DNA from: Candidatus Saccharimonadota bacterium
GTDB taxonomy: Bacteria; Patescibacteriota; Saccharimonadia; Saccharimonadales; UBA4665
Direction of reading: 5' to 3'
NCBI GenBank assembly: GCA_002952755.1
Contig: CP025011.1
Location: forward strand, 930,001-962,000
Length of the DNA: 32,000 nucleotides
In this document: positions 6,429-25,033 of the stretch, piece after piece
Numbering within the stretch: position 1 is the first letter of the stretch
How the letters are laid out: the number at the start of each line of letters is the position of its first letter
Made by a program: the position numbers and the translations under genes
The notes under the pieces: model-generated
What the model saw: the letters and a program-made list of their open reading frames with translations, nothing else
Database searches by the model: none
Told to the model about the DNA's origin: nothing

Positions 6429-6469
6429 ACTGTCAAGGACCGCGCATTCTGCTATCATAAAGCATATAT

Positions 6470-7544: not shown

Positions 7545-7565
7545 GTCATCACCCGGAAGCGCTCT

Positions 7566-8714: not shown

Positions 8715-8760
8715 AACTTAATGATATTATGGCCCAGCCCCGATGCTTATGCAAGGCGAC

Positions 8761-9903: not shown

Positions 9904-11026
9904 GCAACCGTTTACCGGCCCTCAAGGCTTTTGCGTACACTTCTTCGTACTGGGTAACGACATGTTCCCAGCTATACAATGTCATCTCTTTAGCGGCCCA
10001 TGCGCGCCACAAGACCCGTAGCTTGGGTTGATACAGCAACAAATCGAGTCTGCGGGCAAAATCGTCAATCTGCTTGGGGTCGACGAGCGATAGCGCACCC
10101 AAACCCTTCATAACACTCTCGTATCCTGGATTATCACCAGCCACCGTCACCAAACCGGAGGCCATCGCCTCCAGCAAAACAATACCGAAACTTTCGCCAA
10201 AAAGTGATGGAGCGCAAAACAGGTCGGACGAGCGCAGTAACTTAATCTTTTCTTCGTCACTAACATAACCCAAGAAACTAACGTTCTTGAGGTCGAGGTC
10301 TTCCGCCAAGGCTTCCATTTTTTCCCGATCCACGCCATGTCCGGCTAATATCAGAGAGACATCTGGCCTTGTCTTTTGCAGCACGCGAAAGGCATGGAGT
10401 AGGTATTTTACGCCTTTGCGTCCCTCAATACGACCCACGTACAAAATCGTCTTTTCCGGCCGGTTATCATTAAAGTGGGCCGGTGGTCGAAAACGATCGT
10501 CCACTGCGTTAGGAATTATCGCTACTGGCGCATCAGTCAGGCTACTGACATATTCGGCGGCGGCGTCCGATACAGCCGTGAAGGCGTCGATATATTTTAA
10601 TATCGGCTTCGTGTACGGGGTAATCACCTTCGCCATCGTACGGCTCATAACCGTTTCAGGAAGCTTGGCGTGAAACGTAGCAATATTAATCCCTTTGGAA
10701 CGGCTCAGGATCTGTGCGCTCAGCATAGGTATCCATGGTTCGTGAAAGTGTAATATATCGAACTCGTGCGTCGCTAGCATCCGCTCGATGCTCTCACTGA
10801 CACTCGCAGAAATCTGAATCGTGGTATGCGTAGGCGACTTAAAATCGGTGCTGCTGCCCACAAAAATAACGTGGTCTTCTGGCTCATCGCCATGCGATTG
10901 TGGACGAGGAGTAATAATATACACATCGTGCCCTCGCCGACGCAATTCCGCTTGCTGTGCTTTTATTACTTCTAGCACGCCACCATTTTTATTGACCCCA
11001 TACGGACAGACTAAGCCAATTTTCAT
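9896..11026 (-). CDS. GT4-family glycosyltransferase (second copy; 8-nt overlap with the downstream GT4)
   Basis: 376 aa. 'GRIEGRKGVKYLL', 'PSLFGESFGIVLLEAMASG'. On the minus strand TGaTACAAT (11037-11045) lies 10 nt upstream of the ATG. Confidence 0.85.
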   Translation of the reverse strand: MKIGLVCPYGVNKNGGVLEVIKAQQAELRRRGHDVYIITPRPQSHGDEPEDHVIFVGSSTDFKSPTHTTIQISASVSESIERMLATHEFDILHFHEPWIPMLSAQILSRSKGINIATFHAKLPETVMSRTMAKVITPYTKPILKYIDAFTAVSDAAAEYVSSLTDAPVAIIPNAVDDRFRPPAHFNDNRPEKTILYVGRIEGRKGVKYLLHAFRVLQKTRPDVSLILAGHGVDREKMEALAEDLDLKNVSFLGYVSDEEKIKLLRSSDLFCAPSLFGESFGIVLLEAMASGLVTVAGDNPGYESVMKGLGALSLVDPKQIDDFARRLDLLLYQPKLRVLWRAWAAKEMTLYSWEHVVTQYEEVYAKALRAGKRLHG

Positions 11027-11047
11027 AATTGCCCCTATTGTATCACG

Positions 11048-11998
11048 CTAATTATCTTGTTGATTAAACCAGCGCCGGACCTTCGGCGGGATAAAAGCAG
11101 CCGACTCCTTTTTGGTCGCTACCACGCTGGGGGCGTGTGTCTGTAGGTCTAATTCTGCACCCCGGAAATCGGAGTAAATAACCCGCAAGTGCTGCTCCAC
11201 TCGGTAGCTGTTGAAGTAATAATCGCCTTTGGTCGCAATATGCCACACCGGTATCTTGACTTGCTTTTTACAGTTATCCAAATGCAGGAACTCTTTAGTG
11301 GTAAACAGGTGCGTTCTAAGGTCGTTAATTTGCCACAGCTCCAGCTCGGTTTCCATAACAGCGTTGAACATATCAAGCCCGTCGGCGGCGGCGGCCTCGA
11401 ACTTATGACGGGCATTGTGCGTATGTGTGTAAGCATAGCGCAGCGTGAAAGAATTGAGGCCCACCAGCTTAAAGAGCCCGGTTATGCCAGGGATGAGCGC
11501 CATACTGACCGCCGTACGGTAGAACAACATGCGGCGCTTCGTAAAGGTGAAATCATCGCTATGGGCAAAGCCAATACAACTCACTACCACATCGACCTTC
11601 TTAGTAAGCTCCGGATATCGCTGCAGCATGCGCGTCACAATCACAAAACCGAAAGAAATGCCGGCAATGCGGATACGGCGCCGCTTGTAGCGCAACTTGA
11701 TAAACGCCGCCAGATAATCGGCCAAATTATCAATCGTCGGCTTTTTACCAATCTTATAAAAACTGTCCATACCGCCAAAACCGGGCAAGTCCGGCATTGT
11801 CACCGTGCCGAAGGCGTTAAAATTCTGGATAAGCCCCCACCAACGCTCCAGCTTGGCGTGATGGCCATATACAATCAGCACTTCACGCTTGTCGCCGACT
11901 TTTGCTGCCGGCAAGCGCAGCATGCGGCCGCGCAAGCCGTTCATATTGAGCGGCTCGATGTAAGGAGCGGGATCCGGATCTTTTGTTTGTTTTACCAT
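11048..11998 (-). CDS. Alpha/beta-fold hydrolase
   Basis: 'VLIVYGHH..', 'LPGFGG', nucleophile elbow 'GISFG'. I prefer the start at M21 (ATG 11998) because the first 20 codons of the ORF-track version are Cys-rich and atypical. Confidence 0.7.
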   Translation of the reverse strand: MVKQTKDPDPAPYIEPLNMNGLRGRMLRLPAAKVGDKREVLIVYGHHAKLERWWGLIQNFNAFGTVTMPDLPGFGGMDSFYKIGKKPTIDNLADYLAAFIKLRYKRRRIRIAGISFGFVIVTRMLQRYPELTKKVDVVVSCIGFAHSDDFTFTKRRMLFYRTAVSMALIPGITGLFKLVGLNSFTLRYAYTHTHNARHKFEAAAADGLDMFNAVMETELELWQINDLRTHLFTTKEFLHLDNCKKQVKIPVWHIATKGDYYFNSYRVEQHLRVIYSDFRGAELDLQTHAPSVVATKKESAAFIPPKVRRWFNQQDN

Positions 11999-12072
11999 GC
12001 TAGGTACCACTGTACGACAAGGTTTTGTATCTAGGCAAGAATAACATACAAATAACAACGAGTAGCAGAGTA

Positions 12073-12163
12073 ACTCCCTACTTCCCGAGGAGAGTCAGGC
12101 GTAGTGCAACCAGGCGAGCGTAAGCTGGCCTGGTTGCACCGCTCTAGTTGGGTAGGAGGGAGT
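12073..12163 (+). other. Extended imperfect hairpin (~30 bp) capped by a GNRA (GTAA) tetraloop; candidate structured-RNA element
   Basis: 12104-12115 GTGCAACCAGGC pairs perfectly with 12128-12139 GCCTGGTTGCAC. Apical AGC/GCT stem with GTAA loop at 12120-12123. Outer helices 12091-12094/12142-12145 and 12073-12079/12157-12163. Confidence 0.4.
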
Positions 12164-12506
12164 GGTATTCTTTTATCTGGCGAGCTTCTTATTCCCAGCC
12201 ATTACTAACCAGGCAGAGGCAGCAGTGCAGGATGTCACATCTGAACGAGATCCGGGCTACGATGCTTTCAATGCTCAATTTTCTCCGTAATGCCATCCTC
12301 ATACCGCTCAGTTTGCTATTGAGTGGGGTTGCGCAGCATTCTACCATTTTCAATGCTTACAGTAGGAACTCAGCGATTGGGCTAATATAACTTACCGTAT
12401 GGCTGGTCTCTGGACGCACCGCATTTTATCCGATATACAAAACTAAGGACACGCACCAGCAGACGTCTTGGATTACGACCGAAATCATATAGGGGGCCGG
12501 GAAGTT

Positions 12507-12534
12507 GTGGCCCTAGCCAGATGGCCGCTTTTTT
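12507..12534 (+). terminator. Candidate intrinsic terminator closing the upstream non-coding region
   Basis: GTGGCC (12507-12512) / GGCCGC (12523-12528), 10-nt loop, T6 run 12529-12534. A competing helix GGGCC (12494-12498) / GGCCC (12509-12513) is possible. Confidence 0.4.
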
Positions 12535-12542
12535 GGTATACT
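12534..12542 (+). promoter_or_regulatory. Extended -10 element TGgTATACT; probable tRNA-Gln promoter
   Basis: TG 12534-12535, TATACT 12537-12542, about 55 nt upstream of the mature tRNA 5' end. Confidence 0.45.
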
Positions 12543-12598
12543 TTCCCCGTTGAATTCCGAAAGCTGTCGCTAATAAAGATAGCCAAAAGACAACCTAT

Positions 12599-12673
12599 TG
12601 GGGGTTGGCCAAGTGGTAAGGCACCAGGTTTTGGTCCTGGCATTCGGGGGTTCGAATCCCTCACCCCCAGCCA
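12599..12673 (+). tRNA. tRNA-Gln (anticodon UUG), CCA encoded
   Basis: 75 nt. Acceptor TGGGGGT/ACCCCCA with U1-A72, D-arm GCCAAGTGGTAAGGC, anticodon stem CCAGG/CCTGG with loop TTTTGGT, T-arm GGGGG-TTCGAAT-CCCTC, G73-CCA. Closely resembles E. coli tRNA-Gln. Confidence 0.95.
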
Positions 12674-12690
12674 AGACAAGATTTTCAAAA

Positions 12691-12717
12691 CTACCCCTGT
12701 AAAACGGGGTGGTTTTT
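12691..12717 (+). terminator. Rho-independent terminator after tRNA-Gln
   Basis: CTACCCC (12691-12697) / GGGGTGG (12706-12712), 8-nt loop, TTTTT 12713-12717. Confidence 0.8.
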
Positions 12718-12766
12718 GGTTGAATTTGGGGTAGGCATATAGAACGCCAAAACTGCCTGTTTGACT

Positions 12767-12775
12767 TGATATACT
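12767..12775 (+). promoter_or_regulatory. Extended -10 element TGaTATACT, 6 nt upstream of the SDR ATG (leaderless geometry)
   Basis: TG 12767-12768, TATACT 12770-12775, ATG 12782. Confidence 0.45.
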
Positions 12776-12781
12776 TGATGC

Positions 12782-13468
12782 ATGGAATTTAGAGATAAGG
12801 TTATTGTCATTACTGGCGGCAGCAAAGGATTCGGTAAAGGTTTAGCAAGAGCCTTCGCAAGCAAAGGTGCAAAAGTAGTTATCTCAAGCGACGATACAGA
12901 TGTCCTTTTGGAAACGGCTCGTGAATTGCACATTGATTCTTTTCCTTCAGACGTTACCTCGTTTGATGAAGTTAAAGCGCTTGCTGATCATGTCATAGAA
13001 AAGTTCGACCGTATTGATATCTGGATCAATAATGCAGGCATCCAGATTGCTCCGAGCGGAGTTGAAGACGTCGATCTACAAAAACTCCATAGGCTGTTTG
13101 ATATCAATTTCTTTGGTTACTTTTATGGATGTAGGGCCGCGTTACCTATTATGCGCAAGCAACGCAAAGGCGTAGTCGTAAACATAAACTCTACAGCTGG
13201 GTTGGATGGCAAACCGGAGCTCTCGGCTTATGTATCTTCAAAGTTCGCCATCAAAGGCCTTACACAGAGCCTTCGCGAAGAACTGAGAGGTATAGATATT
13301 CAGGTTTACGGGGTTCATCCGGGCGGTATGCAGACGGAGATTTACAAGGAGCTTTATCCAGCAGACTTCGACCAGTACATGAGCGTGGATTATGCTATCG
13401 AAAAGGTCATGGACAACTTTGCAGCGGCGCAGCCTGAGTTAGACCTTATTATTCGTCGCCCAAAGTAG
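12782..13468 (+). CDS. Short-chain dehydrogenase/reductase (SDR) family oxidoreductase
   Basis: 228 aa. Cofactor motif 'ITGGSKGFG', 'NNAG', catalytic 'YVSSKFAIKG' (YxxxK). Confidence 0.9.
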   Translation: MEFRDKVIVITGGSKGFGKGLARAFASKGAKVVISSDDTDVLLETARELHIDSFPSDVTSFDEVKALADHVIEKFDRIDIWINNAGIQIAPSGVEDVDLQKLHRLFDINFFGYFYGCRAALPIMRKQRKGVVVNINSTAGLDGKPELSAYVSSKFAIKGLTQSLREELRGIDIQVYGVHPGGMQTEIYKELYPADFDQYMSVDYAIEKVMDNFAAAQPELDLIIRRPK

Positions 13469-13575
13469 ACACCTCGTCATCGACTTCTGTAAGTAGCTTA
13501 TTAATTTCATTCGCATTATTTTTTCACCCTCGCCCCTGTTAAAAGTTTTAACTAGGCACTCGATGCCTAGCCATA

Positions 13576-13611
13576 GAAAGAGCTCCAAATCAGAAGATCT
13601 AGAGCTTTTTC
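13576..13611. terminator. Hairpin with A-tract/T-tract arms (possible bidirectional terminator after the SDR gene)
   Basis: GAAAGAGCTC (13576-13585) pairs with GAGCTTTTTC (13602-13611), 16-nt loop. A second hairpin CTAGGCA/TGCCTAG lies at 13552-13570. Confidence 0.4.
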
Positions 13612-13685
13612 TATGTAGTCGGCATTTCTACCAAGTCTCAGTATGCTTTTTTATGTGGCATGGTTCGTTTTAGTTGCTCTATTTA

Positions 13686-13694
13686 TGGCATAAT
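13686..13694 (+). promoter_or_regulatory. Extended -10 element TGgCATAAT, 8 nt upstream of the metalloprotease ATG
   Basis: TG 13686-13687, CATAAT 13689-13694, ATG 13703. Confidence 0.4.
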
Positions 13695-13702
13695 AGTCCT
13701 TT

Positions 13703-14950
13703 ATGAGCGAGTCTACCGGAGAAACGCCCAATAATCGGTCACTGCCAAAGTATGCTATGGTAGGTCGCATCATGGCTGCTGCAGTCTTAGCCGGAGGAGT
13801 CGTTGGAACTGGGGAGATCATTGAGAAATGGCACGACTCTGCCAATGAACATGGATGTTCACCGGTTAGCCAGGATTCATTATTGGCTGCGCAGCAGCTT
13901 CTAGATAGTTCTCCTGGAGACGAAATCAACAATAAGGGTTTGGTAACAATTAGGGAACACGCAGCTCAATCGAATGGTCTTACGGCTTATAATCCTAACT
14001 TGTATGACCAAAGTCTCTTGAATGACCTGAATTCTGGAAATAGGACAAAGTCCTCTCTACCTTTTAGGGACTATTTCAGTGCGGCTAAAAGTTTTAGCGC
14101 AAAGTTTGGCATTGATGTACGTATTAGTAAATCAAGCGATAATCTTGATTACAAGGGACAAGTTCCTAAAAATGAAGACCTTGAAGATCCCATAGCAAAG
14201 AAAGATATGGTTAACCTTATCCAATCGCTTGGAGCGGTGCCGCTTGAATACATACAGATGATTGGCTTGAAAAATATTGTACTAGAGGCAAACGCGAAGT
14301 CATATGCGGCAGCTTATGCAAAAGTGGGCGGACCCCATGACACGATTGTCTTAAATATTAGTATGGATAATGAACCACGAGTATTGTGGCACGAAGAAGG
14401 GCATTTATTCGATGCGATTACCTGTCATGGACCACAAGGCATGAAAAATGACCATGGCTTTACGGCGCTGAATGGAAGGCAGAAATATAACTCTAGTTCA
14501 CATCCGATACCAGACTCGACGCACTATGAATTTGTGCAAGAGGCATCTGATGTGTTGGATGCTCATACTACTAAAAAGGATGGCCTGTGCGTTGCACTAG
14601 AAGAAATAAGGCATAAGGGACTCAACAATGTAGTTTTTACTGATGCATATGCCGGCACAAACCCCATGGAAGATAAGGCTCAACTCGCATCTTATTTTCC
14701 TGATAATATGGATAACGCTGATGTTTTTGACAACAACACACCGCTTTTGGAAAAAAAGTACGCCTATCTTTTCGCTAGATTATATGAACGTGACCCCAGG
14801 ATTGCCCGTTTTTTTAACACTGTAAGCCTGCATTCAGGAATGACTACTGACTTTTTTGATACAGAATGTTCATCAAACTCTACGGCACCATTGCTATCGC
14901 CATTCTCTGAACATACAACATCTTCAATGCCTACCGGCAAGCAATATTAA
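13703..14950 (+). CDS. Membrane-anchored/secreted putative zinc metalloprotease (HEXXH)
   Basis: 415 aa. N-terminal hydrophobic anchor 'IMAAAVLAGGVVGTG'. 'HEEGH' at nt 14390-14404 within 'TIVLNISMDNEPRVLWHEEGHLFD'. Downstream 'YAGTNPMEDKAQLASYF'. AT-richer than the flanks. Confidence 0.7.
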   Translation: MSESTGETPNNRSLPKYAMVGRIMAAAVLAGGVVGTGEIIEKWHDSANEHGCSPVSQDSLLAAQQLLDSSPGDEINNKGLVTIREHAAQSNGLTAYNPNLYDQSLLNDLNSGNRTKSSLPFRDYFSAAKSFSAKFGIDVRISKSSDNLDYKGQVPKNEDLEDPIAKKDMVNLIQSLGAVPLEYIQMIGLKNIVLEANAKSYAAAYAKVGGPHDTIVLNISMDNEPRVLWHEEGHLFDAITCHGPQGMKNDHGFTALNGRQKYNSSSHPIPDSTHYEFVQEASDVLDAHTTKKDGLCVALEEIRHKGLNNVVFTDAYAGTNPMEDKAQLASYFPDNMDNADVFDNNTPLLEKKYAYLFARLYERDPRIARFFNTVSLHSGMTTDFFDTECSSNSTAPLLSPFSEHTTSSMPTGKQY

Positions 14951-15105
14951 TACAACAGCATTATACCGTTCGACCACTTCTTTTGGCGAACGCTGAATAA
15001 TGGGCAATAGATGGGCGTCGTACTCTTTCCCAGCCAAACCTTATACTCGTTGCTTTTGGTCCCACTTACTTGGGTGTCTGGATTATTTTTTAACTCTAAA
15101 AAGCC

Positions 15106-15134
15106 TTGACGAGCTAGTACGGGTTTGGTAATTT
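15106..15134 (+). promoter_or_regulatory. Sigma70-type promoter TTGACG-N17-(TGg)TAATTT
   Basis: -35 at 15106-15111, 17-nt spacer, TG 15126-15127, -10 at 15129-15134. Confidence 0.55.
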
Positions 15135-15140
15135 GTCTGT

Positions 15141-15286
15141 GGAAGACATATGTGAAACAGCATTTTGTACTTCATATGTGGCCAGTCAAGTTAGTAAGTT
15201 CGACAGTTTGTTAGTTAGTAGGTCACATCTGTGGGTGCAAGTCTTCCTGAGTATAAAGAGGCACGATTCGTGCCTCTTTTCTTTTG
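15141..15286 (+). ncRNA. Candidate ~145-nt small RNA, or terminator-containing leader of rsgA
   Basis: Bounded by the 15106 promoter and the 15257 terminator. No ORF longer than 12 codons. Internal hairpin ACATATG (15147-15153) / CATATGT (15173-15179). TTAGT repeats at 15190-15215. Confidence 0.3.
15257..15286 (+). terminator. Rho-independent terminator
   Basis: AGAGGCACG (15257-15265) / CGTGCCTCT (15269-15277), loop ATT, followed by TTTCTTTTGG. Confidence 0.75.
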
Positions 15287-15360
15287 GTCCATGACCTAGC
15301 AAGTCTATCCACGAAGATTCAGTAGTGATCGCTTGAACAAAGCCAGTATTAGGATGAAAT

Positions 15361-16440
15361 GTGGCCCATTGCTGTCATACTAAGGGTATGGACCTGGCAT
15401 CGTTTGGCTGGACGGAAGAATTTCGTCAAAAATGGGAAGCACTACAATTGGTAGGCGCTCAGCCCGCTCGGGTAGTTGCGGACTTTGGCACGTCGCTCAA
15501 AATTGCAGCGCCCGAAGTTATGGCTGCCGAGTTATCCGGCAAGCTTGCTCACTATGCCGACCGCCAAGATGTCCCCAAGGTTGGCGACTGGGTTGCGGTG
15601 ATGCCCTCCGATACTGGCCCCGCTATCATAGAAGCGGTCATTCCTCGCCGCACCGAAATTGCTCGCAAAGTTGCTGGGAAGCGAGCCATAAAACAAATCA
15701 TCGCCGCCAATGTCGACATTGCCTTCGTGCTATTGGCGCTCGACAATGACTTCAATATTGAACGACTCAAACGATTTCTGTACCAATTGTCTATTGATGC
15801 TATTAGCCCGGTCATAGTGCTTAACAAAGCCGATAAAACAAATGACGTTGGCGGGTACATCGATAGCCTGCGCAACTTTAAACTACCGGTTATTGTGACA
15901 ACTGCCATCGAAGGTACAGGTATTGCCCAGATACACGCTCACATTCCGGCTGGTAAGACTGCGATTTTGCTAGGATCATCGGGAGTGGGCAAATCGACTC
16001 TCACTAACCAGCTGCTGGGTGTTGACGAGCAAGCCACCCAAGCAGTGCGTGAATCCGACTCTACTGGCGTGCACACTACCGTACATCGTGAACTGTTTGT
16101 ACTACCTGGCGGCGGTCTGCTCATAGACGCCCCGGGAGTACGCGAACTACAGCTCTGGGGTACCGAAGAAGACTTAGTCGAAAACTTTGATGATGTTGCC
16201 GAACTAGCTAGCCAATGCAAATACAGCAACTGCAAACACTTGCACGAAGAGGGCTGCGCCATACAGGCGGCCTTACTGGATGGAACGCTCAATCGTAGCC
16301 AGTACACCAGCTACCTCAAAATGAGACAAGAACTAGCCAGCCTCAAGGCCAAGCAAATCGTACGCAGCCAACGCAGCAACCAACGATCTAAAAAGAGCCT
16401 CCAGCGACGAAATCAAGACAGTATGAACGACGGTTGGTAG
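15361..16440 (+). CDS. rsgA: Ribosome small-subunit-dependent GTPase A (circularly permuted GTPase)
   Basis: G4 'LNKADK' precedes G1 'GSSGVGKSTL' and G3 'DAPG'. Zn knuckle 'CKYSNCKHLHEEGC' (Cx4CxHx5C). GTG 15361 has AGGA 6 nt upstream. ATG 15388 ('MDLASFGW') is an alternative start. Confidence 0.9.
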   Translation: MAHCCHTKGMDLASFGWTEEFRQKWEALQLVGAQPARVVADFGTSLKIAAPEVMAAELSGKLAHYADRQDVPKVGDWVAVMPSDTGPAIIEAVIPRRTEIARKVAGKRAIKQIIAANVDIAFVLLALDNDFNIERLKRFLYQLSIDAISPVIVLNKADKTNDVGGYIDSLRNFKLPVIVTTAIEGTGIAQIHAHIPAGKTAILLGSSGVGKSTLTNQLLGVDEQATQAVRESDSTGVHTTVHRELFVLPGGGLLIDAPGVRELQLWGTEEDLVENFDDVAELASQCKYSNCKHLHEEGCAIQAALLDGTLNRSQYTSYLKMRQELASLKAKQIVRSQRSNQRSKKSLQRRNQDSMNDGW

Positions 16441-16525
16441 TTGCATTACGTAGCGCCTCGGCCGCTAGGGACACCCCCTAAGTGCGGGCCTTTGTGACAC
16501 CGGTGGACTGCGAACTGTAATGCAA
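16441..16525 (+). other. 85-nt hairpin domain beginning immediately after the rsgA stop codon
   Basis: TTGCATTAC (16441-16449) pairs with GTAATGCAA (16517-16525), plus a G16450-T16516 wobble. Inner stem TAGCG/CGCTA at 16451-16455/16463-16467. Confidence 0.4.
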
Positions 16526-16762
16526 ACGAGATGCTGCGGGGGTATCTCTCTACAGAGTCGTTCTACTCATTCGATCTCTAGTGATAAGTGCTCCAAGTAT
16601 GGGACTAAGGACTACCGCACAGTATGTGAGATAGATCCAGGGGAACTGGCCAATATAGAAATCATGCGCACTTAAGGGATAAGGGGGGCAAGGAATCGAG
16701 CCCAGCCTTAGTAAGGCTGCGAACTACGCTCCGATGATCTTTTCCGTTTTATCGTTATGCAA

Positions 16763-17449
16763 TTACTTATCGCGTACTTTTAAAAAGTTGGCTTCGATGA
16801 CGTGACCATGGTCAATGACGCTGTCAACATCCAAATCAAAACCCAGTAGTGTCATCATTTTGCCGGTTGGGGTGCGCAATGCAGCAATCCTTTGTCGCTC
16901 TGTGCCACTCAGCGTACGGAGAGCTGGATCATTCATATGCTGGCGAAATAACATTGCATTCGTAGGATAGGATGGGTCATCGACCGTCCAATTAGACCGG
17001 AAGACTTCTACCGGATTGCCAACTTCATCCAAGTAATCGATCGTTTGCCTCATCTGCTCGGCTGGTCGGATGTCCGGATGTTTACGCGACGGCCAATCCC
17101 CTGGTGCGCGTGAGCGTATTATTGCCCGTAGCAAACCAGGTCGTTCTATATATGCGCTGAACATATACATCGGTAGCGGGTGCCCCACGCCAATGGTGTC
17201 CGGCGCCAATAGTGTGTAGTCAGCTATACTAACGCCCCTACCGGTTGTCTGCACCGTGAGCACGTTACCATTGAGAGTGCGCACACGCTCATGCATGTTC
17301 AAATGGAGTTCGGGAATAGCCAACTCATTAGGACGTCGATTTTCAAATTGTATTTCGTGCATGGCAACTGTTGTCTCAAATATATGCTTCTTGTCATTTG
17401 CTTTATCGAGATGCTTAAAGGTTTGGGGATGTTCACTGTCCCTAGCCAC
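16763..17449 (-). CDS. Hypothetical protein (no recognisable motif)
   Basis: 228-aa ORF with a GTG start at 17449. A TATAAT lies only 2 nt upstream of that GTG, so the true start may be the internal ATG at 17362. Confidence 0.55.
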   Translation of the reverse strand: MARDSEHPQTFKHLDKANDKKHIFETTVAMHEIQFENRRPNELAIPELHLNMHERVRTLNGNVLTVQTTGRGVSIADYTLLAPDTIGVGHPLPMYMFSAYIERPGLLRAIIRSRAPGDWPSRKHPDIRPAEQMRQTIDYLDEVGNPVEVFRSNWTVDDPSYPTNAMLFRQHMNDPALRTLSGTERQRIAALRTPTGKMMTLLGFDLDVDSVIDHGHVIEANFLKVRDK

Positions 17450-17817
17450 GCATTATAAACAGTCAGGAGCGGCTGTTTGTAAGTTCTAACCATTTCGGAC
17501 CTTTAGCTTGGGGTAGCTAATCTCAGAATACAACTTAACGAACGGGTCGCTAAAGCCATCTTGTTTTGATTAGACATCATTGCAGCAACAATCAGAGGGA
17601 AGCCATTTTCGCTATTGCTACTTCTTGCCGGTTATTCTATGTATTCTATAGCCTTCAGTCGTCCGGGCAAAAAGGCGAGGTGACGCCAATCTCTCAACCA
17701 AATCCACAGCCCAAACCTGCTGCCTATCCAGGGAGATGCTACACACATCGTACACAATTGCTACGCAAACCCGCCACCGTCTCACTGTAATCATCAGCTT
17801 GCAGTCGCCAGCTCCAG

Positions 17818-18921
17818 CTAAGCACTTCCCAGCTTCTGGACAAATTGACGGGGCAATCGAGCTCGCAGCTCTTCACGGGCAAACTTCCGCAGAGGTTCCT
17901 TTTTCACTAAATAGGTTTCCAGTTTAAGATACGTTTCGGTCAGCTTACTGACCTCAGTTTCTGAGAATGACGAATCAGGCCCTTTACGAACGGTAATCAT
18001 GCGAACTGGGTCCAAGAGAGGGTCAATTTCCTTTGGCGTAGAGACGAGTGCCGCCGCGTACAGCACAATGTCCAAGGGCCGGGCGTCCTCTGGCACAGTA
18101 CCGTATTGACTGCCGACAGTTTTGTACAGCTGACCCGAGCGCAAGAAGCAAATACTTGTAACAAAAAAGGGCGTCAAGACCAAGGCGTGCGTATTGTACC
18201 AGATCAGAATTGGTATATTCGGGCCTACGGTCTGTACCACAACCAGACTCACGAAAGCAAAAGATGCAACCCCGAGAGCAAAGACTAACCATGTCGTTGC
18301 CGGCTGATATGACGCACCAATCACCTTACGGATATTAGCCGCTACCAAAACCCCAGCCAGAGTGAATCCACCGCTCCATCCGAGCATGCCGAACAATAGG
18401 CTAATCAAAGCCCGATCACTCCCCACGCTTGCGGTTGTCGGCGCCATATAACCGCCTACATAAGCCGCCGTGCCCATAACGATCGCGAGGCCCAAGGCCA
18501 GCCATAGATTCCGCCATCCACCATCTACCTTAAGCAACCCGGCAAACTTCCGCACCGCGAAATACAGCATGACACTACCAACAGTCCAGGGCGCGATCAA
18601 TAAGAATTGTGCCAGGATAGGATTAATGGCGGGGAAGACGTGCAACAAAGCATACGTCACCGGTAGTTGCAGCTGCGATAACCCAAATAGCACCAGGCCT
18701 ACCGACAGAAAACCATACGCCACTTTGAGCCCACGCTGAAAGTTCTTTAGTGCTGTTAAGAAATACCACAGAGCGCCACTATGAACGACAAAAATACTGA
18801 ACATGGAAGCATCGGTTATCGCAAGTGCCCAGGTAGGGGTGTCCTTTGGCGCTCGCCATATCAAACATGCGATGCTAAGCACCAAACTAATAATAAGATA
18901 GGCTGCAAATTGTTTTTTCAT
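17818..18921 (-). CDS. 8-TM membrane protein with a C-terminal soluble domain (paralog A of the permuted pair)
   Basis: GGAG lies 7 nt upstream of ATG 18921. About 8 hydrophobic helices including 'GLSQLQLP' and 'AVRKFAG'. C-terminal ~90 aa: 'IDPLLDPVRMITVRKG..LETYLVKKEPLRKFAREEL'. Confidence 0.8.
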   Translation of the reverse strand: MKKQFAAYLIISLVLSIACLIWRAPKDTPTWALAITDASMFSIFVVHSGALWYFLTALKNFQRGLKVAYGFLSVGLVLFGLSQLQLPVTYALLHVFPAINPILAQFLLIAPWTVGSVMLYFAVRKFAGLLKVDGGWRNLWLALGLAIVMGTAAYVGGYMAPTTASVGSDRALISLLFGMLGWSGGFTLAGVLVAANIRKVIGASYQPATTWLVFALGVASFAFVSLVVVQTVGPNIPILIWYNTHALVLTPFFVTSICFLRSGQLYKTVGSQYGTVPEDARPLDIVLYAAALVSTPKEIDPLLDPVRMITVRKGPDSSFSETEVSKLTETYLKLETYLVKKEPLRKFAREELRARLPRQFVQKLGSA

Positions 18922-18973
18922 TTGCAACTCCGGTAAAGATCGCCCACCACGTTCCCCCTAAATTAATACTGCT

Positions 18974-18988
18974 TATGCTATAAGCATA
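18974..18988. promoter_or_regulatory. 6-3-6 palindrome TATGCT-ATA-AGCATA in the divergent intergenic region (possible operator)
   Basis: Perfect inverted repeat, about 55 nt upstream of the paralog A start. Confidence 0.25.
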
Positions 18989-19152
18989 GAACCTAATCAG
19001 CCCTCCCGTCAAACAAAAAACTCTGTAGCTTGATCGCAAGCGGCTCCCAGTGGCAAAAAGTTTAGAGCCGGCAGGGCAGCTCCTTCACGATACTGCTCGC
19101 GTAGTGATCGTCGTCACAGTCGTGCGGTTATCGTCTCGACTATACTTCGATC

Positions 19153-20535
19153 ATGGCAACCAATCTCCGCAAATATATCGTTGGACTTGATGCGTCAGTG
19201 CCAGTACGTGGCGGCATGCGGCCATATATCAACCTGGATAACGCAGCCAGCACACCTCCGTTCAGGAGCGTTTTAGAAGCAGTGGATCACTTCTCGCCGT
19301 GGTACTCTTCCGTACATCGTGGTAACGGCCTCAAAAGCCGCCTGAGCACCGAGGCCTACGAGGAAGCCCGTCAGATTGTGGCCGCATTTGTCAGCGCGAA
19401 TTCAGACGAGCGTGTGGTGATCTTCGGTAAAAATACAACTGAAGCGATCAATAAACTCTCGTATCGTCTACCCCTAAAGAAAACCGACATCGTGCTTATC
19501 TCGCATCTCGAGCACCACAGCAACGATCTGCCCTGGCGGGCACGGGCTACAGTAAAAAGGATCGGTTTAACGCCTGAAGGCGGCATTGACCGGGCAGATT
19601 TCGTGGCCCTACTGGATAAATATGGCGGACGCATTAAGCTGGTGGCGATTTCCGGCGCGTCCAATGTGACGGGGCACATTCCGGATATTCACTGGTTTGC
19701 CCGCAAAGCTCATGAAGCCGGTGCACAAATCCTCGTGGACTGCGCCCAGCTAGCAGCCCACCGGCCCATCCGCATAGGCAGCCTGGAAGATCCGGAGCAT
19801 CTGGACTACATAGCGATTTCCGGCCATAAAATGTACGCGCCGTTCGGCACAGGGGCGCTTATCGGGCGGCGGGATACCTTCATGCGCAGCGAGCCGGAGT
19901 ACCGGGGCGGCGGCACGGTCAACCTGGTAACTCCCACTATCGTTGACTGGGCTGCATCACCAGATATTGATGAAGCCGGTTCACCAAATGTGATTGGAGC
20001 CGTTGCGTTAGCCCGCGCCATTAAGACGCTTGAACAGATTGGTCTAAATACCATTGCCGAACACGAAGCTGCCCTGACACGCTATGCCCTCACGAAGCTA
20101 AAAGAAGTGCCTAATGTAACGGTATACGGCGAAATAGAGCCAAGCTATGCCACCGGCCGCTCGGGTGTCATTCCTTTTACTGTCGGAAATGTGCCGCCGC
20201 ATTTAGTGGCGGCAATACTTGGTTTCGAGTGGGGTATCGGTGTGCGTAGCGGCTGCTTCTGCGCACAACCCTATGTGATGAGCCTGCTCGGGATCGACCG
20301 TCAAACGCAGTATCGCATTCGTTACAATCTGCTGCATAGGCGGCGCGATCTTATGCCTGGCATGGTGCGGATTAGTTTCGGCCTCTATAACACACGCGAG
20401 GAGATTAACGTGCTTATCAAGGCTTTGGCGGCCATCTCCGAGGGCAAATACGGTGGATATGCGGTAGATAGAGCAAACGGCTCTTATACTCCCATTGACG
20501 ACACCGAAGACCTTTCAGCTTATTTCAAAATCTAA
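19153..20535 (+). CDS. Class-V aminotransferase-fold PLP enzyme (cysteine desulfurase/SufS-like)
   Basis: 460 aa. PLP-lysine context 'ISGHKMYAPFGTGALIG'. SufS-like C-terminal 'RSGCFCAQPY' (compare RxGHHCAQP). TATACT 19141-19146 lies 6 nt upstream of the ATG. Confidence 0.88.
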   Translation: MATNLRKYIVGLDASVPVRGGMRPYINLDNAASTPPFRSVLEAVDHFSPWYSSVHRGNGLKSRLSTEAYEEARQIVAAFVSANSDERVVIFGKNTTEAINKLSYRLPLKKTDIVLISHLEHHSNDLPWRARATVKRIGLTPEGGIDRADFVALLDKYGGRIKLVAISGASNVTGHIPDIHWFARKAHEAGAQILVDCAQLAAHRPIRIGSLEDPEHLDYIAISGHKMYAPFGTGALIGRRDTFMRSEPEYRGGGTVNLVTPTIVDWAASPDIDEAGSPNVIGAVALARAIKTLEQIGLNTIAEHEAALTRYALTKLKEVPNVTVYGEIEPSYATGRSGVIPFTVGNVPPHLVAAILGFEWGIGVRSGCFCAQPYVMSLLGIDRQTQYRIRYNLLHRRRDLMPGMVRISFGLYNTREEINVLIKALAAISEGKYGGYAVDRANGSYTPIDDTEDLSAYFKI

Positions 20536-20579
20536 AACCTATCTCTAAAGTCGGACTTTCAGTCACAAGGAGATGAAGG

Positions 20580-22163
20580 TCAAGCTTCTTCGCCAAGCAG
20601 TTTCTTAAGTTGACGCTCGCGGTCTGCAGGATCCTGAATCGCCTCAACTTTAGCAAGCAAATCTGCAAGTTCCACCTGACTTACCGTCTGCAAATCCGTA
20701 GCATTCACCTGTGCCTCGGTGCCGGCAAGTTTGACTACGGCCTCGTCTGTATACTCAGATGAACCACTAGCCTCAGCCCTAATGCGTCGATGTAATTCGA
20801 GTATTGGTCCATGGGTGTCGGTCATATCAGGAAGCTCCGGGGCGCTCAGGACTACACCGCCTTGTAAGGCGAACGAAACCAGCGTGTAGTAGATTGCATT
20901 ACGTCGGTACGCATTCGGCACCCGGTTAATATACGGTATGGCAGCGACAGGCCCTATATCTCGAAGCAAGTGCCGATAGGCAACCATCCTATGCTGCTGT
21001 TTCCCGCTGTCGAAGGCAAGGGCGTTGATGGCAGCTTGTGAGTCACCCCATTCAGCGCGATTTAGTTGGACGTTGAATGTGTCCGTTTCCTCGGCGACTG
21101 CCGATGTAAAACCCTTAAGATATTCGTCAAAACCCTGTCGCCCTATAAGGTGTGGCCAGGTATCTGCGAGGAGAGGTATGGTTTCATCCCACCAGCGGCC
21201 GTACTCGGGAGTGGGTTCCGGTGACTTCTTGGGTAATCCTCCACCCTCTAAGGCGTCGAGGCCTGCTTCGAATAGATCAAACGCCCAAGTTACTGGCGCC
21301 CAAATGCCATCCTGATGGAATCGATCCGCCGCAGCCTCTTTGGCTATTTCGGTACGCGTTTTCCATTGTTTTCCTGGCGGTTTTAGCTTTTCAGCCTGTG
21401 CATCCAAATATTTGCCATAACGAAGCGCAGTCGACTCGTCAGTGCTTTTGGCAAGCACTGCGGCCACGGCAATACAGACTGCCTGCCTTCCCTCTGCAGC
21501 ACCAAAAAGATCTTCTGCAGGCCGCCCCTTACTAAGGTCATGCCGAGCCAGTCTAGCGAGGAGATACGGCTCTACACCAAACGAATGCATTAAAGTACTT
21601 CGATAATCAGGATCATCGCTCGCACGGTACGCATCGAGTAGATTTTGGGCGTGCATAAAAGGGAACGACTCACTACTCCGCAGCAGAATATGTTTGGCCT
21701 CGTCAGGTCGACCACTTGCCAACATCCCCATACCAAGCTCATCTGATCGACCAGCTTGTCCTTCGGGCACTTTCTCGCCGGAAAGCAATTGATTGGCAAG
21801 GTCCTCATTACCAGCCATAAGTGCAAGACTGCCAGCCTCGATACAAATCTCCGCAACGACATCCCGCCATTTATCGTAGCCGCCCTCGTTGCTCTGGTTG
21901 ATTCGCGCAACCACTCCAAGATACTCATCCTGAGCTCGCGCAAGCCGGCGTCGGGCCCATCCCGGTAGCTCATCTTGATCTTGCGCCTCAACCTTTTGAG
22001 CCGAGCGTGGATAATGTGCCGCAAAGTACGCGTCAAATGTCGGAGGTACCTCATATCCCACCTGAAGATCTACTGTAGCTCGCCCCTCCCAGCTAGACAT
22101 CAGCTCTGCCGCAGGTCCAGGTCCCATTACTGGGCCTCCTAAACCAAATCGTTTGTCAGACAT
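20580..22163 (-). CDS. Large soluble orphan protein, predicted mainly alpha-helical
   Basis: 527 aa from ATG 22163 ('MSDKRFGLGG'), which has AAAGGA 6 nt upstream. No TM segment or catalytic motif recognised. Confidence 0.72.
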   Translation of the reverse strand: MSDKRFGLGGPVMGPGPAAELMSSWEGRATVDLQVGYEVPPTFDAYFAAHYPRSAQKVEAQDQDELPGWARRRLARAQDEYLGVVARINQSNEGGYDKWRDVVAEICIEAGSLALMAGNEDLANQLLSGEKVPEGQAGRSDELGMGMLASGRPDEAKHILLRSSESFPFMHAQNLLDAYRASDDPDYRSTLMHSFGVEPYLLARLARHDLSKGRPAEDLFGAAEGRQAVCIAVAAVLAKSTDESTALRYGKYLDAQAEKLKPPGKQWKTRTEIAKEAAADRFHQDGIWAPVTWAFDLFEAGLDALEGGGLPKKSPEPTPEYGRWWDETIPLLADTWPHLIGRQGFDEYLKGFTSAVAEETDTFNVQLNRAEWGDSQAAINALAFDSGKQQHRMVAYRHLLRDIGPVAAIPYINRVPNAYRRNAIYYTLVSFALQGGVVLSAPELPDMTDTHGPILELHRRIRAEASGSSEYTDEAVVKLAGTEAQVNATDLQTVSQVELADLLAKVEAIQDPADRERQLKKLLGEEA

Positions 22164-22341
22164 AGGTAGTCCTTTCACTTTATGCACGGTATCAGGATAT
22201 GATTATTAATAATTCACTAACTTACTACCCCGGTCAAGCTAAATCTACCCAATGATTCGGAATAATCCACAGAAAATATCCTGCGATTTATTTTTAGGAC
22301 TGGCGAGCGGCTGCCGATGCTCGCTATCAATTGAACAACCA

Positions 22342-22369
22342 TTGAATTATCTCGTGGCGTGGCTATAAT
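22342..22369 (+). promoter_or_regulatory. Sigma70-type promoter TTGAAT-N16-TATAAT
   Basis: -35 at 22342-22347, -10 at 22364-22369, about 24 nt upstream of ATG 22393. Confidence 0.55.
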
Positions 22370-22392
22370 ACCCATAGAGAAGACTAATAAAA

Positions 22393-22803
22393 ATGAACAA
22401 AAAACTCTCACGATATATAAACCTACAGACTCTTTTCTTCTTACATGGCGCAATAACCTTAGCGGCCGGCATTGTACTGGTCATCGACCCTAATCTCATA
22501 CCTGGTGTTGTGGGTATACGCTTGCCGTCCTCTGCCTATCTTGTGCCGTATCTTCTGGGAACCGCTGAGTTGTGCATTGCTGCGATATCATTCGGGGCCT
22601 GTAGGTTCGCAGATGGTCTCGCACTGCGCACAGTAGCTTGGTCATTCATCATCTTGCATGGATCAACGGCTCTCATCGAAATATACGCATATGCGCAGGG
22701 TCTGGACGCATTAATCTGGGGTAATGTTGTACTGCGTGTCATCGTAGTTGTACTCTTTGCCTATTTCGGGGTGTATCAACTAGCGGGCAAGACAACGAAG
22801 TAG
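22393..22803 (+). CDS. Small 4-TM membrane protein (hypothetical)
   Basis: 136 aa with four hydrophobic helices. A strong promoter lies upstream. Confidence 0.7.
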   Translation: MNKKLSRYINLQTLFFLHGAITLAAGIVLVIDPNLIPGVVGIRLPSSAYLVPYLLGTAELCIAAISFGACRFADGLALRTVAWSFIILHGSTALIEIYAYAQGLDALIWGNVVLRVIVVVLFAYFGVYQLAGKTTK

Positions 22804-22966
22804 GAGTGAATCGTGGACCGAAGCTCACATATGAGATTAAGGCCCCTCTTGCACAACTCACGCGTAAAACTAGCTAGAAGAACATTAATGAACTGCACTG
22901 ATTGATCCAAAGTATCTCGAGGTGATACGGGGCTTGAGCTAGAGCTTGGACACGTCTGCAGCAAGA

Positions 22967-24037
22967 CTAATATTCTGTTGCCCTTTTAAAAGAATAGCTC
23001 GTCCAAAGCCAGATCACATTTGAAACCATAAAAGGAATAGCAAGAATCCCAAACGTCGCTCCGAAAAGTGAGCCCTTGGCAAACAAAAAAACTAGAAAGA
23101 GCGTTAATCCTATAGCAGCAGTCATTTGCGAAGCGGCAAGCAAATGCATAGGCAGGGCGTAAATTTTAGTGCTTACCCCAGCGACCTTGCGAGTTAGCAT
23201 AGCGTTCAACACTAGCGTAAAAAGATTGGCGCTCATCACAGCCATCGAGAAATCAAAAAGCGCTTCGTTCTCAGGGCGTGAACTATGCGGAAGCACGACT
23301 GCCAGCGCTGCGATACCAATCCAAGCCGGCCCGATCACCTTGAGTGACATAAGAGGCGAGGAAGGTACGCCAACAATCTTGGCATAGCGACGTACTGCAA
23401 GGAACACGCATACAATCGCAATAAACGTCGGTGTGCTTACTCCACCATAGCGAAATAGCGGGGCCTGTTCTAGGTTCCAATAAGAAACGATTGGCAACTG
23501 TGTCTGGCTCAAACCCAGCACAAGCGAACTCACGCAGAGTAACGTATAGGCCGGCTGCAATTCCGGCTTAAAGTTGTGACGAGCCGTCCAATAAAATCCG
23601 ATTGCGCCCGCGCTCAAGGTCAAGAGAGCCAGCCATGAACCTAGCTGGCTGCGCTGCGATATATCGCCAATGCCAGGAATCGCCATCGCACCCACGAGTA
23701 TAACCACCATTACAGCAAGCACGCCATATAAGGCTCTACGTAGCTTGGAAAAATGCCCGGTAAGCATGTGCTCTCTTATCTTTTGCTCAAGTTCCTCCGG
23801 GGTAAAGACTCGAACAGGGTCATGGTGTATAAGATAGTCTTCAAGCTGCTGCTGCGTTTTCTGCAAAATTTTCAGATCTTGTTGTGTTGTCCCACTCCGA
23901 CTTGTCACGAGCCGTATAGCGTCAAGCATAGGATCAATCGCAGCCGTATTCGACGCCAAAGACGCTAGGTAAACCAACACTTCTATCTTAGACTCAAACA
24001 TGCTCGAACCTGAAGTAGGACCCTGCATTACACCCAT
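22967..24037 (-). CDS. 8-TM membrane protein with an N-terminal soluble domain (paralog B, domain order permuted relative to A)
   Basis: N-terminal 'IDPMLDAIRLVTSRSG..LEDYLIHHDPVRVFTPEEL' is followed by ~8 TM helices including 'GLSQTQLP' and 'AVRRYAK'. Confidence 0.8.
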   Translation of the reverse strand: MGVMQGPTSGSSMFESKIEVLVYLASLASNTAAIDPMLDAIRLVTSRSGTTQQDLKILQKTQQQLEDYLIHHDPVRVFTPEELEQKIREHMLTGHFSKLRRALYGVLAVMVVILVGAMAIPGIGDISQRSQLGSWLALLTLSAGAIGFYWTARHNFKPELQPAYTLLCVSSLVLGLSQTQLPIVSYWNLEQAPLFRYGGVSTPTFIAIVCVFLAVRRYAKIVGVPSSPLMSLKVIGPAWIGIAALAVVLPHSSRPENEALFDFSMAVMSANLFTLVLNAMLTRKVAGVSTKIYALPMHLLAASQMTAAIGLTLFLVFLFAKGSLFGATFGILAIPFMVSNVIWLWTSYSFKRATEY

Positions 24038-24333
24038 ACTATCAATTGTAAGCTCATCTGACTCGCCGGCAAAGGATTTAAAGGTCGCATCAAACGTGGC
24101 ACTTTTATGGCCGCCGGCTCGCCAGCGTGCATGCGTTTAGGCTTGTTCAAAAGCTTTAAGCAAGCCGTTAGGTAACCTTCCGCGATGAGTTTGTGTACCG
24201 GCTCTCTCACAATAAGGTAGTCTTCTAATGCAGATACGGATCGGTAGGCAGACTTATCGGCAGGCGAAAGTCCCCGTCCTGGCTCAAGTCGCACCGTCAT
24301 AATCCCACAAAGGGCTTCTCCATCCTTTGACAA
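24028..24333 (-). CDS. Small protein carrying only the distal half of the shared soluble domain (mini-paralog or gene remnant)
   Basis: 'IMTVRLEPGRG..ALEDYLIVREPVHKL' aligns to paralogs A and B. Its stop overlaps the start of B (ATGGGTGTAA). The ORF begins at TTG 24333, and an in-frame ATG lies at 24300. Confidence 0.45.
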   Translation of the reverse strand: MSKDGEALCGIMTVRLEPGRGLSPADKSAYRSVSALEDYLIVREPVHKLIAEGYLTACLKLLNKPKRMHAGEPAAIKVPRLMRPLNPLPASQMSLQLIVWV

Positions 24334-24382: not shown

Positions 24383-25033
24383 ATGTCCTTACAACCTGAA
24401 AATTCAACTCCAGATGATGGCCTTCTAGTTAGTTTAGGTAATTGCGCTAACGTGCCGCCTCTTCACCCGGAGCCTTACGGTACAAATGACGAAGTACCAG
24501 TCGATGATGGATGGAACGAAACTATGGCTGAGATATTTGCCGATAAGTATTCATATATGTGCAATTATGTAGGTAGCTTGCTGCGTGGTTCGGCAATGGG
24601 TGGATCGAGTGCAGAAGATATCGCCAGCGACGCGATTGTGAATGTATATAAAACAAGAGGGCGGGGAGTAGGTATCCAAACCGCCAATGGGTATTTTAGA
24701 ACGACTGCGTACCATTGCGTGGTCAACGCAACGAGGAAACCTGATGCGCATACCCAGGCTATGCCGGAAGACTATGAGGAACACAGCCCCTCGTTTGAGC
24801 CTCGGGTCCTCAATAGCCAAGTCTTGCAGGAACTGCTGGCAGCCACAGAATTATCACCCCTGCACCTTGCCATCCTAGACTTAATGTACTTCCAAGGAAG
24901 AACCACTTCTGAGGCTGCGCGGGAGCTAAATATGCCAGTAGGTACCGTCAAATCAAGTAAATTTTACGCCCTAAAATGCATTCGTCGAACTGCAGAAAGA
25001 TTGGGACTGTCGGCAAGTGACTTTGGTGGCTAA
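24383..25033 (+). CDS. ECF-type sigma-70 family sigma factor
   Basis: 216 aa. Region 2-like 'AEDIASDAIVNVY..YFRTTAYHCVVNATRK'. Region 4 HTH 'YFQGRTTSEAARELNMPVGTVKSSKFYALKCIR'. About 45-aa N-terminal extension. AGGAA lies 10 nt upstream of the ATG. Confidence 0.85.
   Translation: MSLQPENSTPDDGLLVSLGNCANVPPLHPEPYGTNDEVPVDDGWNETMAEIFADKYSYMCNYVGSLLRGSAMGGSSAEDIASDAIVNVYKTRGRGVGIQTANGYFRTTAYHCVVNATRKPDAHTQAMPEDYEEHSPSFEPRVLNSQVLQELLAATELSPLHLAILDLMYFQGRTTSEAARELNMPVGTVKSSKFYALKCIRRTAERLGLSASDFGG

Follow-up and report, generated by a model that had tools for sequence, protein, structure and literature searches.

Genes A and B lie on the minus strand of a 32,000-nucleotide stretch of a Candidatus Saccharimonadota genome (contig CP025011.1, positions 930,001 to 962,000; hereafter the window, meaning this whole stretch, numbered from its first letter). 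They encode paralogous membrane proteins that carry one and the same soluble domain at opposite termini of homologous cores of eight transmembrane (TM) helices: the domain follows the last TM helix in A and precedes the first in B. The same two orders, core then domain (A-type) and domain then core (B-type), recur across a large family of proteins. As a structural and evolutionary description of the family as a whole, the paralogy and the swap of order are held with high confidence. The overall explanation offered here, in which a function is joined to the structure and the evolution, is considered probable, with considerable room for doubt. Proteins and loci used for comparison carry P and L numbers, respectively. 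The elements of the two genes are as follows, with lengths in amino acids (aa) and helices taken from AlphaFold2 (AF2) models, those of the A core as assigned by DSSP.

17818..18921, minus strand: gene A, A-type, 367 aa from the ATG at 18921; identical to a public protein (P0001)
18103..18921, minus strand: eight-TM core of A, aa 1-273
aa 2-22, 28-60, 63-82, 101-129, 136-159, 167-200, 206-235 and 245-273: TM helices of A
17824..18078, minus strand: C-terminal soluble four-helix domain of A, aa ~282-366, delimited by BLASTP to the N-terminus of B and by the soluble-domain profile
aa 282-293, 296-312, 321-341 and 349-355: helices of the A domain
22967..24001, minus strand: gene B, B-type, 344 aa from the Met at 24001, following public gene calls (P0004)
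23762..24001, minus strand: N-terminal soluble four-helix domain of B, aa 1-80
aa 2-15, 19-34, 40-60 and 68-80: helices of the B domain
22973..23755, minus strand: eight-TM core of B, aa 83-343
aa 83-107, 114-143, 149-174, 189-210, 220-236, 246-276, 279-309 and 315-343: TM helices of B

Both open reading frames (ORFs) reach further upstream than these starts. That of A extends to 18927 (17818-18927, minus strand) and would encode 369 aa from a TTG start, according to the ORF listing, and that of B can be extended to an ATG at 24037 (22967-24037, minus strand), giving 356 aa.

The independent evidence for homology comes from pairwise BLASTP of A against B. The soluble domains (A residues 285-363 against B residues 18-92) align at 32% identity with E=1e-13, and a part of the TM cores (A 41-134 against B 134-224) aligns at 32% identity with E=5e-8. 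In a MAFFT alignment of A, B and three relatives, the eight TM segments are collinear and the soluble domain is left unpaired at opposite ends. Profile comparison with hhalign gives the same picture: the TM cores of 131 A-type and 18 B-type proteins match with a probability of 100% and E=4e-55 over 253 collinear columns, and the soluble domains of 132 A-type and 19 B-type proteins with a probability of 99.95% and E=1.5e-37 over 78 columns. These profile scores are supporting rather than independent evidence, because both sets were picked by hidden Markov models (HMMs) built from both types. The family TM HMM scores above 185 bits on each of A and B, and the family soluble-domain HMM gives 103.9 bits at the C-terminus of A and 81.5 bits at the N-terminus of B. 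A preliminary description, made from the letters alone, had aligned the two cores by eye, had placed a shared hydrophilic domain after the last TM helix of A and before the first of B, and had suggested pairwise and profile alignment of both segments as a check. The alignments are significant for each segment, and all the peptide strings it quoted from A and B are present in the ORFs. Its pairing of IRKVIGAS with TRKVAGVS stood in part: both strings exist, but in the family alignments the pairing is off by about 3 residues, and the shift brings a near-invariant tyrosine into register (A Y205 with B Y281).

The predicted structures agree with this division into modules. For A, modelled from a 5-sequence alignment, AF2 returned 8 long TM helices and a four-helix soluble domain with a predicted local distance difference test score (pLDDT) of 72.6 and a predicted template modelling score (pTM) of 0.71. 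For B, modelled from a 51-sequence alignment, it returned the same elements with a pLDDT of 93.9 and a pTM of 0.87. The count of eight helices per protein, first made by eye, is thereby borne out, and the helix boundaries of the two domains correspond under the BLAST alignment. The last domain helix of B continues nearly directly into TM1, and in A a low-confidence linker of about 10 residues lies between TM8 and the first domain helix. Across 149 aligned family TM cores, columns rich in lysine or arginine occur only before TM1, in the loops 2-3, 4-5 and 6-7, and after TM8. The positive-inside rule then puts both termini in the cytoplasm (N-in, C-in), and so the domain is cytoplasmic in A and in B alike. 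It had been argued that an even number of helices would keep the domain on one membrane face in both arrangements. This reasoning holds, with the cytoplasm as the shared compartment, since an even count allows the domain to be attached at either end and yet remain cytoplasmic.

The extent of the family emerged only from an exhaustive HMM search. When A, B or a 150-sequence alignment served as the query, word-indexed protein searches returned 2-6 proteins each, TM words apparently swamping the candidates. Among the proteins that they did yield are P0003, a second A-type protein at 28% identity, and P0005, a B-type ortholog described below. A scan of metagenomes for the sequence pattern gave 3 loci only. 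The exhaustive search, run against 1.84 billion cluster representatives with a profile built so that both modules hold diversity of both types, found 754 proteins (clusters) at E<=1e-3 and 388 at E<=1e-30. The set classified for domain order, by separate core and domain HMMs, comprises 152 sequences, namely the best 150 listed of the 754 together with P0001 and P0003. The order is core then domain in 133 of the 152 and domain then core in the other 19, so that the A-type is about seven times commoner than the B-type in this set. None of the 152 carries the domain at both ends, and no intermediates were found. The preliminary description had suggested a database-wide search for the family, and the swap is thus seen at family level, among cluster representatives of both types.

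The closest B-type ortholog of B is P0005 (39% identity, locus L001), which, like B, stops right after the last TM helix; a B-type ortholog is also present in L006. The P0005 gene is split in L001, a Logan assembly, into pieces of 260 aa and 88 aa (5553-6335 and 6355-6621) by a stop or frameshift, which reflects either a pseudogene or an assembly error.

These observations bear on the suspicion that the N-terminal domain of B is an artefact, produced by an assembly or annotation fusion or by a recent local rearrangement or pseudogene of this one genome. The split of the L001 ortholog and a degraded half-domain copy directly upstream of B, described below, which shows local rearrangement, could be taken in its favour. 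Against it, the 19 B-type sequences are distinct 50%-identity clusters in which domain and TM core form uninterrupted ORFs, including ORFs from NCBI genomes (L006 and L024); AF2 folds B as a single unit, with the scores given above; and an identical B protein was independently assembled in a Logan run. The family census and the AF2 model refute the artefact, to which we assign a negligible probability. Because 19 of the 152 family sequences share the domain-then-core order, the B-type is an established subfamily.

Neither the TM core nor the soluble domain had been recognised at the outset, and the searches agree that neither belongs to an annotated family. Pfam has no match for A or B at E<=0.1, and no Pfam family recurs among 80 members at E<=1, the best being ATP-synt_J (5 members, E=0.03), which is noise. 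NCBIfam gave no match, and a sequence search of the PDB with the family profile found no relative, only CryoR2 at E=2.3. In a taxonomy scan of one genome per GTDB species, five loci were found: four of the A-type in metagenome-assembled genomes (MAGs) of Saccharibacteria/Saccharimonadia, and one of the B-type in a MAG labelled Bacillota. A and B belong to an extensive family of inner-membrane proteins that lacks annotation and has been met, to date, mainly in Saccharibacteria (Patescibacteria) genomes. Saccharibacteria and other bacteria in the candidate phyla radiation (CPR) have tiny genomes, live attached to host bacteria and encode a membrane proteome that is mostly unannotated. What is gained is a definition covering at least 750 sequence clusters with no Pfam, NCBIfam or PDB relative, together with a predicted fold that is confident for the B-type protein (pLDDT 94). 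Should its members prove to be merely structural membrane proteins, the value would be smaller, that of a new family definition for annotation.

Concerning the origin of the swap, A and B are ancient paralogs. In a neighbour-joining (NJ) tree of the TM cores based on BLOSUM62 distances, all 18 B-type sequences (18/18) fall in one clade, and the nearest neighbour is B-type for 17 of the 18. From these sequence comparisons, the B-type most likely has a single origin or a few origins that followed gene duplication, and the A-type is probably ancestral, the tree being unrooted. Natural permutations of domain order (circular permutations) are known from proton-translocating transhydrogenase, swaposins and DNA methyltransferases, and the accepted route to them is duplication or fusion followed by loss. 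As in those cases, the same modules stand in another linear order among homologs. Unlike those cases, a whole 8-TM core is exchanged with a soluble domain, and both orders are found as linked paralogs in one genome. A membrane core and a soluble domain trading order at constant topology make a clean natural example of such a permutation, and the persistence of both orders as linked paralogs makes the family a good test case for the origin of domain permutation in membrane proteins.

A further copy of the soluble domain, the third in the window, is incomplete:

24184..24300, minus strand: second half only of the soluble domain, HMM positions 32-71 of 84

This copy ('MTVRLEPGRGLSPADKSAYRSVSALEDYLIVREPVHKLI') lies inside an ORF at 24028-24333 (minus strand), just upstream of B, where 346 bp separate B from a divergent sigma gene; the ORF is called as a 90-aa gene in one public assembly (L014). 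It matches A in BLASTP with E=0.001 and the family soluble-domain HMM with 21.2 bits and E=8e-6 in a search of all 764 six-frame ORFs of the window, where the next best has E=1.1. An A-type HMM gives it 19.1 bits and a B-type HMM 19.3 bits, and with scores this equal the type from which it came is left undecided. Judged from these matches, a degraded family member or a partial duplication has probably left it behind as a relic. It shows that the locus has been rearranged, but its youth means that the original permutation is not recorded in it. The 3' end of the same ORF contains a promoter-like site for B, in a promoter and terminator scan whose hits are at background level.

Three positions of the family TM core are near-invariant, F61, Y69 and Y205 in A numbering (F144, Y152 and Y281 in B), each present in at least 93% of family sequences. 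Further conserved positions of the TM core are A68, R124, W211, F/Y266 and G75, and those in TM7 and TM8 are P251, A/S262, G263 and F/Y266. The best-conserved positions are mostly at cytoplasmic helix ends, and a few residues are conserved at periplasmic ends ('GLSQLQLP', 'LPH' and 'WY'). No conserved polar set of a catalytic type was seen in the family alignment of the TM core. Two motifs summarise the modules, and A and B conform to both: a cytoplasmic loop motif, NF(K/Q)xxL(K/R)xAY, in the collinear 8-TM core, and a soluble-domain motif, DxVxYxAxLxSxPxxID...LExYLxxxEPLR, in one copy at one terminus.

A and B each join one cytoplasmic four-helix domain of about 80 residues to an 8-TM core whose two termini are cytoplasmic, with some seven of the eight helices predicted to pack like a bundle of the rhodopsin or G-protein-coupled receptor type. 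In the mechanism proposed here, the A-type and B-type proteins would be non-enzymatic membrane sensors or adaptors, whose four-helix domain may bind to the conserved cytoplasmic face or send its signal from there, and the two types may cooperate, possibly as a heteromer. A role as sensor or adaptor is suggested because the conserved residues (F61, Y69, R124, Y205, W211 and F/Y266) cluster at cytoplasmic helix ends, because a catalytic set is lacking, and because paralogs, two-component genes and pilus genes occur as neighbours. This functional reading is put forward tentatively, as a possibility that may well prove wrong. Among the closest known systems are bacterial polytopic sensor modules such as 7TMR-DISM, MASE1 and 5TMR-LYT: they too join a multi-helix membrane core to a cytoplasmic domain, have occasional two-component neighbours and lack catalytic residues in their membrane part. 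Unlike them, the A/B family has no Pfam match to any of the three, and its domain is small and helical rather than a kinase, GGDEF or HD domain and can stand at either terminus. The family would then offer a candidate sensor pair that is testable in cultivable strains, whose biology revolves around type IV pili and contact with the host.

The neighbours in question are of two kinds. First, A-type and B-type genes are linked. Among 10 independent B-type loci with usable flanks, 4 have an A-type gene 0.5-4 kb from the B-type gene, namely the window, where the gap is 4.0 kb, and three further loci from distant genomes:

L008, 1-4730: A-type and B-type genes with a gap of 2.8 kb
L019, 182-4898: A-type and B-type genes with a gap of 2.5 kb
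L024, 156-2894: A-type and B-type genes with a gap of 0.5 kb, divergent

Orientations and intervening genes differ among them. If the genes were unlinked, a genome of about 1-1.5 Mb would be expected to give chance linkage at about 1-3% per locus, so that 4 of 10 is very unlikely to be due to chance (roughly 1e-4, as an estimate). Second, two-component genes adjoin family genes in 3 loci (L003, L017 and L019), and type IV pilus genes do so in two of these. A histidine kinase gene and a receiver gene lie directly upstream of the A-type gene in L003, with further kinase, receiver, PilB and PilC genes downstream. In L017, a B-type gene of 432 aa stands at the head of a receiver-receiver-PilB-PilC string, and another B-type gene is found past the pilin genes at the other end, so that the two, at 7111-8184 (plus strand) and 16453-17751 (minus strand), 8 kb apart, bracket a type IV pilus cluster (pilins, PilC and PilB) together with two single-domain receiver genes. 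The 432-aa L017 protein sits where L003 has its histidine kinase. In L019, a response regulator gene and a histidine kinase gene stand between the A-type and B-type genes. As a separate observation, the genes around the L003 A-type gene (6727-20924), which encode histidine kinase, receiver, PilB and PilC proteins, form a cluster homologous to that of L017.

A bolder version of the sensor proposal would make A-type and B-type proteins obligate partners of a new two-subunit, 7-TM-like receptor of Saccharibacteria and other CPR bacteria, in which the swap lets the two domains pair and which signals to type IV pili. If this were true, the swapped domains would approach from different sides of the heterodimer and pair, and a signal from the envelope or from host contact would be passed to the receivers that control the pili. 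The complex would then replace a sensor kinase, as the position of the L017 B-type gene upstream of its receiver-receiver-PilB-PilC string, compared with the histidine kinase of L003, might suggest. We regard this version as decidedly unlikely.

The family could instead be one of transporters or channels, that is, 8-TM permeases for a small solute or lipid whose four-helix domain is a regulatory or gating cap. The core is polytopic, its nearest structural analogues are ion-pumping rhodopsins, glutamine, proline and histidine are conserved at periplasmic helix ends ('GLSQLQLP' and 'LPH'), and genes of ATP-binding cassette (ABC) and major facilitator superfamily (MFS) transporters are frequent neighbours. 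A preprint reports opsins acting as lipid scramblases without retinal (10.1101/2025.08.17.670764), which can be counted on the same side. The searches of Pfam, NCBIfam and the PDB, however, brought up no likeness to transporter families, few polar residues are conserved within the membrane, and ABC and MFS genes are common genes whose positions near the family vary. Nor was an internal repeat or inverted-topology pseudo-symmetry seen, a statement made without a formal test. A transporter or channel is thus rather unlikely, and a sensor or adaptor remains the preferred, if tentative, function.

The resemblance to rhodopsins leads to a further alternative, in which microbial rhodopsins are the ancestors of a highly diverged TM core that lacks the lysine and has acquired an extra N-terminal helix and a cytoplasmic domain. 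Foldseek searches of the PDB with the A and B models independently returned type-1 rhodopsins as nearly all top matches, with target-normalised TM-scores of 0.5-0.63, root-mean-square deviations of 5.4-7.6 Å, identities of 10-16% and E values of 0.02-0.5. Type-1 rhodopsins are encoded by some Saccharibacteria (PMC9296517). In L018, moreover, a B-type gene (803-1906) is followed, 37 bp downstream, by a C-terminal heliorhodopsin fragment (PF18761). None of the Foldseek matches reaches E<=1e-3, however, and up-down helical bundles attain TM-scores of 0.4-0.6 without homology. No member of 80 (0/80) matches the Bac_rhodopsin or Heliorhodopsin families of Pfam even at E<=1, TM7 and TM8 contain no conserved lysine, motifs of the RYxDW or DxxxK type are missing, and the L018 adjacency is a single case, possibly a coincidence. 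Descent from an opsin is accordingly judged highly unlikely. Membership of the rhodopsins is ruled out by the missing Schiff-base lysine and the lack of a profile match, which leaves a non-significant resemblance of fold: the TM core is at most rhodopsin-like in packing and is not a rhodopsin. What the models of A and B share with type-1 rhodopsins and the 7-TM receptor fold, their best structural analogues, is an up-down helical bundle; A and B differ in having eight helices instead of seven, no retinal lysine and an additional cytoplasmic four-helix domain. The L018 fragment itself belongs to a 147-aa gene (1943-2386, plus strand) of which only the last ~75 residues are heliorhodopsin-like ('...LLRLLAKSALAWQVFAGTL'), and it appears to be a truncated relic.

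Several results weigh against the explanation as a whole. For the evolutionary part, an NJ tree based on Kimura distances places only 15 of the 18 B-type sequences in a pure clade and leaves three divergent ones outside, the bootstrap value for the exact B-type split is 6/100, and the soluble domain is too short for tree resolution. Monophyly of the B-type is therefore method-dependent; in its strict form, which holds with BLOSUM62 and fails with Kimura distances, it was rejected, and given the poor support for the exact split the claim is limited to B-types mostly clustering. The taxonomic range rests on the five GTDB loci. For the functional part, the linkage of A-type and B-type genes could be synteny inherited from an old tandem duplication and not functional coupling, two-component adjacency in 3 of about 15 loci is marginally above expectation, the neighbours are unrelated at most loci, the context from which function is read is weak, and none of the matches to rhodopsin-like folds is significant, the best Foldseek E being 0.02.

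Besides A and B themselves, the window contains four genes that had been grouped with them:

19153..20535, plus strand: SufS-like class-V aminotransferase, a pyridoxal phosphate (PLP) enzyme, between A and B; Pfam Aminotran_5, E=3e-81, with a TIGR01979 (sufS) match below its cut-off
20580-22187, minus strand: soluble orphan protein, 535 aa, between A and B
22393-22803, plus strand: 4-TM protein, 136 aa, between A and B
24383-25033, plus strand: sigma-70 family protein with a clear region 4; matches to extracytoplasmic function (ECF)-type profiles all well below cut-off

The preliminary description had seen in these genes, together with A and B, a possible envelope sensing or transport module, and had suggested asking whether the ECF sigma neighbourhood is conserved. 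In such a module, B would be an anti-sigma-like membrane partner of the sigma factor. In favour of this, the N-terminus of B is a cytoplasmic helical domain of some 80 aa with TM helices behind it, the gene lies beside an ECF-like sigma-70 family gene, and three other loci also have a SufS-like gene near their B-type genes. The synteny speaks otherwise. An ortholog of A, P0002 (78% identity, L010-L013), has wholly different neighbours (flavodoxin-like, AHSA1, HxlR, MFS and TetR genes), and none of the genes upstream of it matches a window gene. For the orphan and the 4-TM protein, neither Pfam nor NCBIfam has a match, and an all-against-all BLAST of the ORFs of 15 loci found no counterpart in the 14 other loci; both proteins seem to be lineage-specific. 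The 4-TM protein shows no similarity to the L018 heliorhodopsin fragment. A sigma homolog was found elsewhere only once, 8 kb from an A-type gene in L003, and none is adjacent to a B-type gene in 9 other loci (L001, L006, L008, L016-L019, L021 and L024). Within the window, B and the sigma gene run divergently: B is not located downstream of the sigma gene, and the two are not co-transcribed. A conserved six-gene module is thus ruled out by synteny and largely refuted, and we consider the grouping very improbable; the orphan, the 4-TM protein and the ECF-like sigma factor stand outside any conserved system.

The idea of B as an anti-sigma factor fares no better. B does resemble membrane-anchored ECF anti-sigma factors: its N-terminus is a cytoplasmic helical domain of comparable size, membrane helices come next, and the gene neighbours an ECF-like sigma gene. 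Such factors have one TM helix, however, whereas B has eight; the B domain has no cysteine or conserved histidine and thus no HxxxCxxC zinc motif of the zinc-binding anti-sigma (ZAS) type; the gene is divergent from a sigma gene whose presence beside it is not conserved; and the domain is C-terminal in most family members (133 of the 152), which is not an anti-sigma architecture. No RskA or zf-HC2 match was found in Pfam for A, B or 80 members, and the candidate was rejected for the divergent orientation, the eight TM helices and the missing zinc motif. The sigma protein itself has an N-terminal extension of about 45 aa, is a divergent ECF-like factor and has no obvious anti-sigma gene downstream. 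Scans for tRNAs and Rfam families found only a tRNA-Gln.

Of the window neighbours, the SufS-like gene alone is met again near B-type genes in other loci. It occurs in 4 of the 10 B-type loci, 3-5 kb from the B-type gene and with different intervening genes:

window, 19153-20535, plus strand
L006, 13941-15458; 65% identity to the window protein
L021, 4544-5632
L018, 5147-5416

Genes for VKOR, DsbA, Crp-family and GreA proteins are often found near loci with B-type and SufS-like genes. Order and spacing vary, which suggests residual synteny, a loose block within the lineage. Finally, in two Saccharibacteria MAGs (L004, 81-3196, and L005, 3222-12703) the A-type gene stands between two genes that are homologous across both loci; the downstream one resembles by eye the beta subunit of F-type ATPases, and about 8 kb are inserted in L005.

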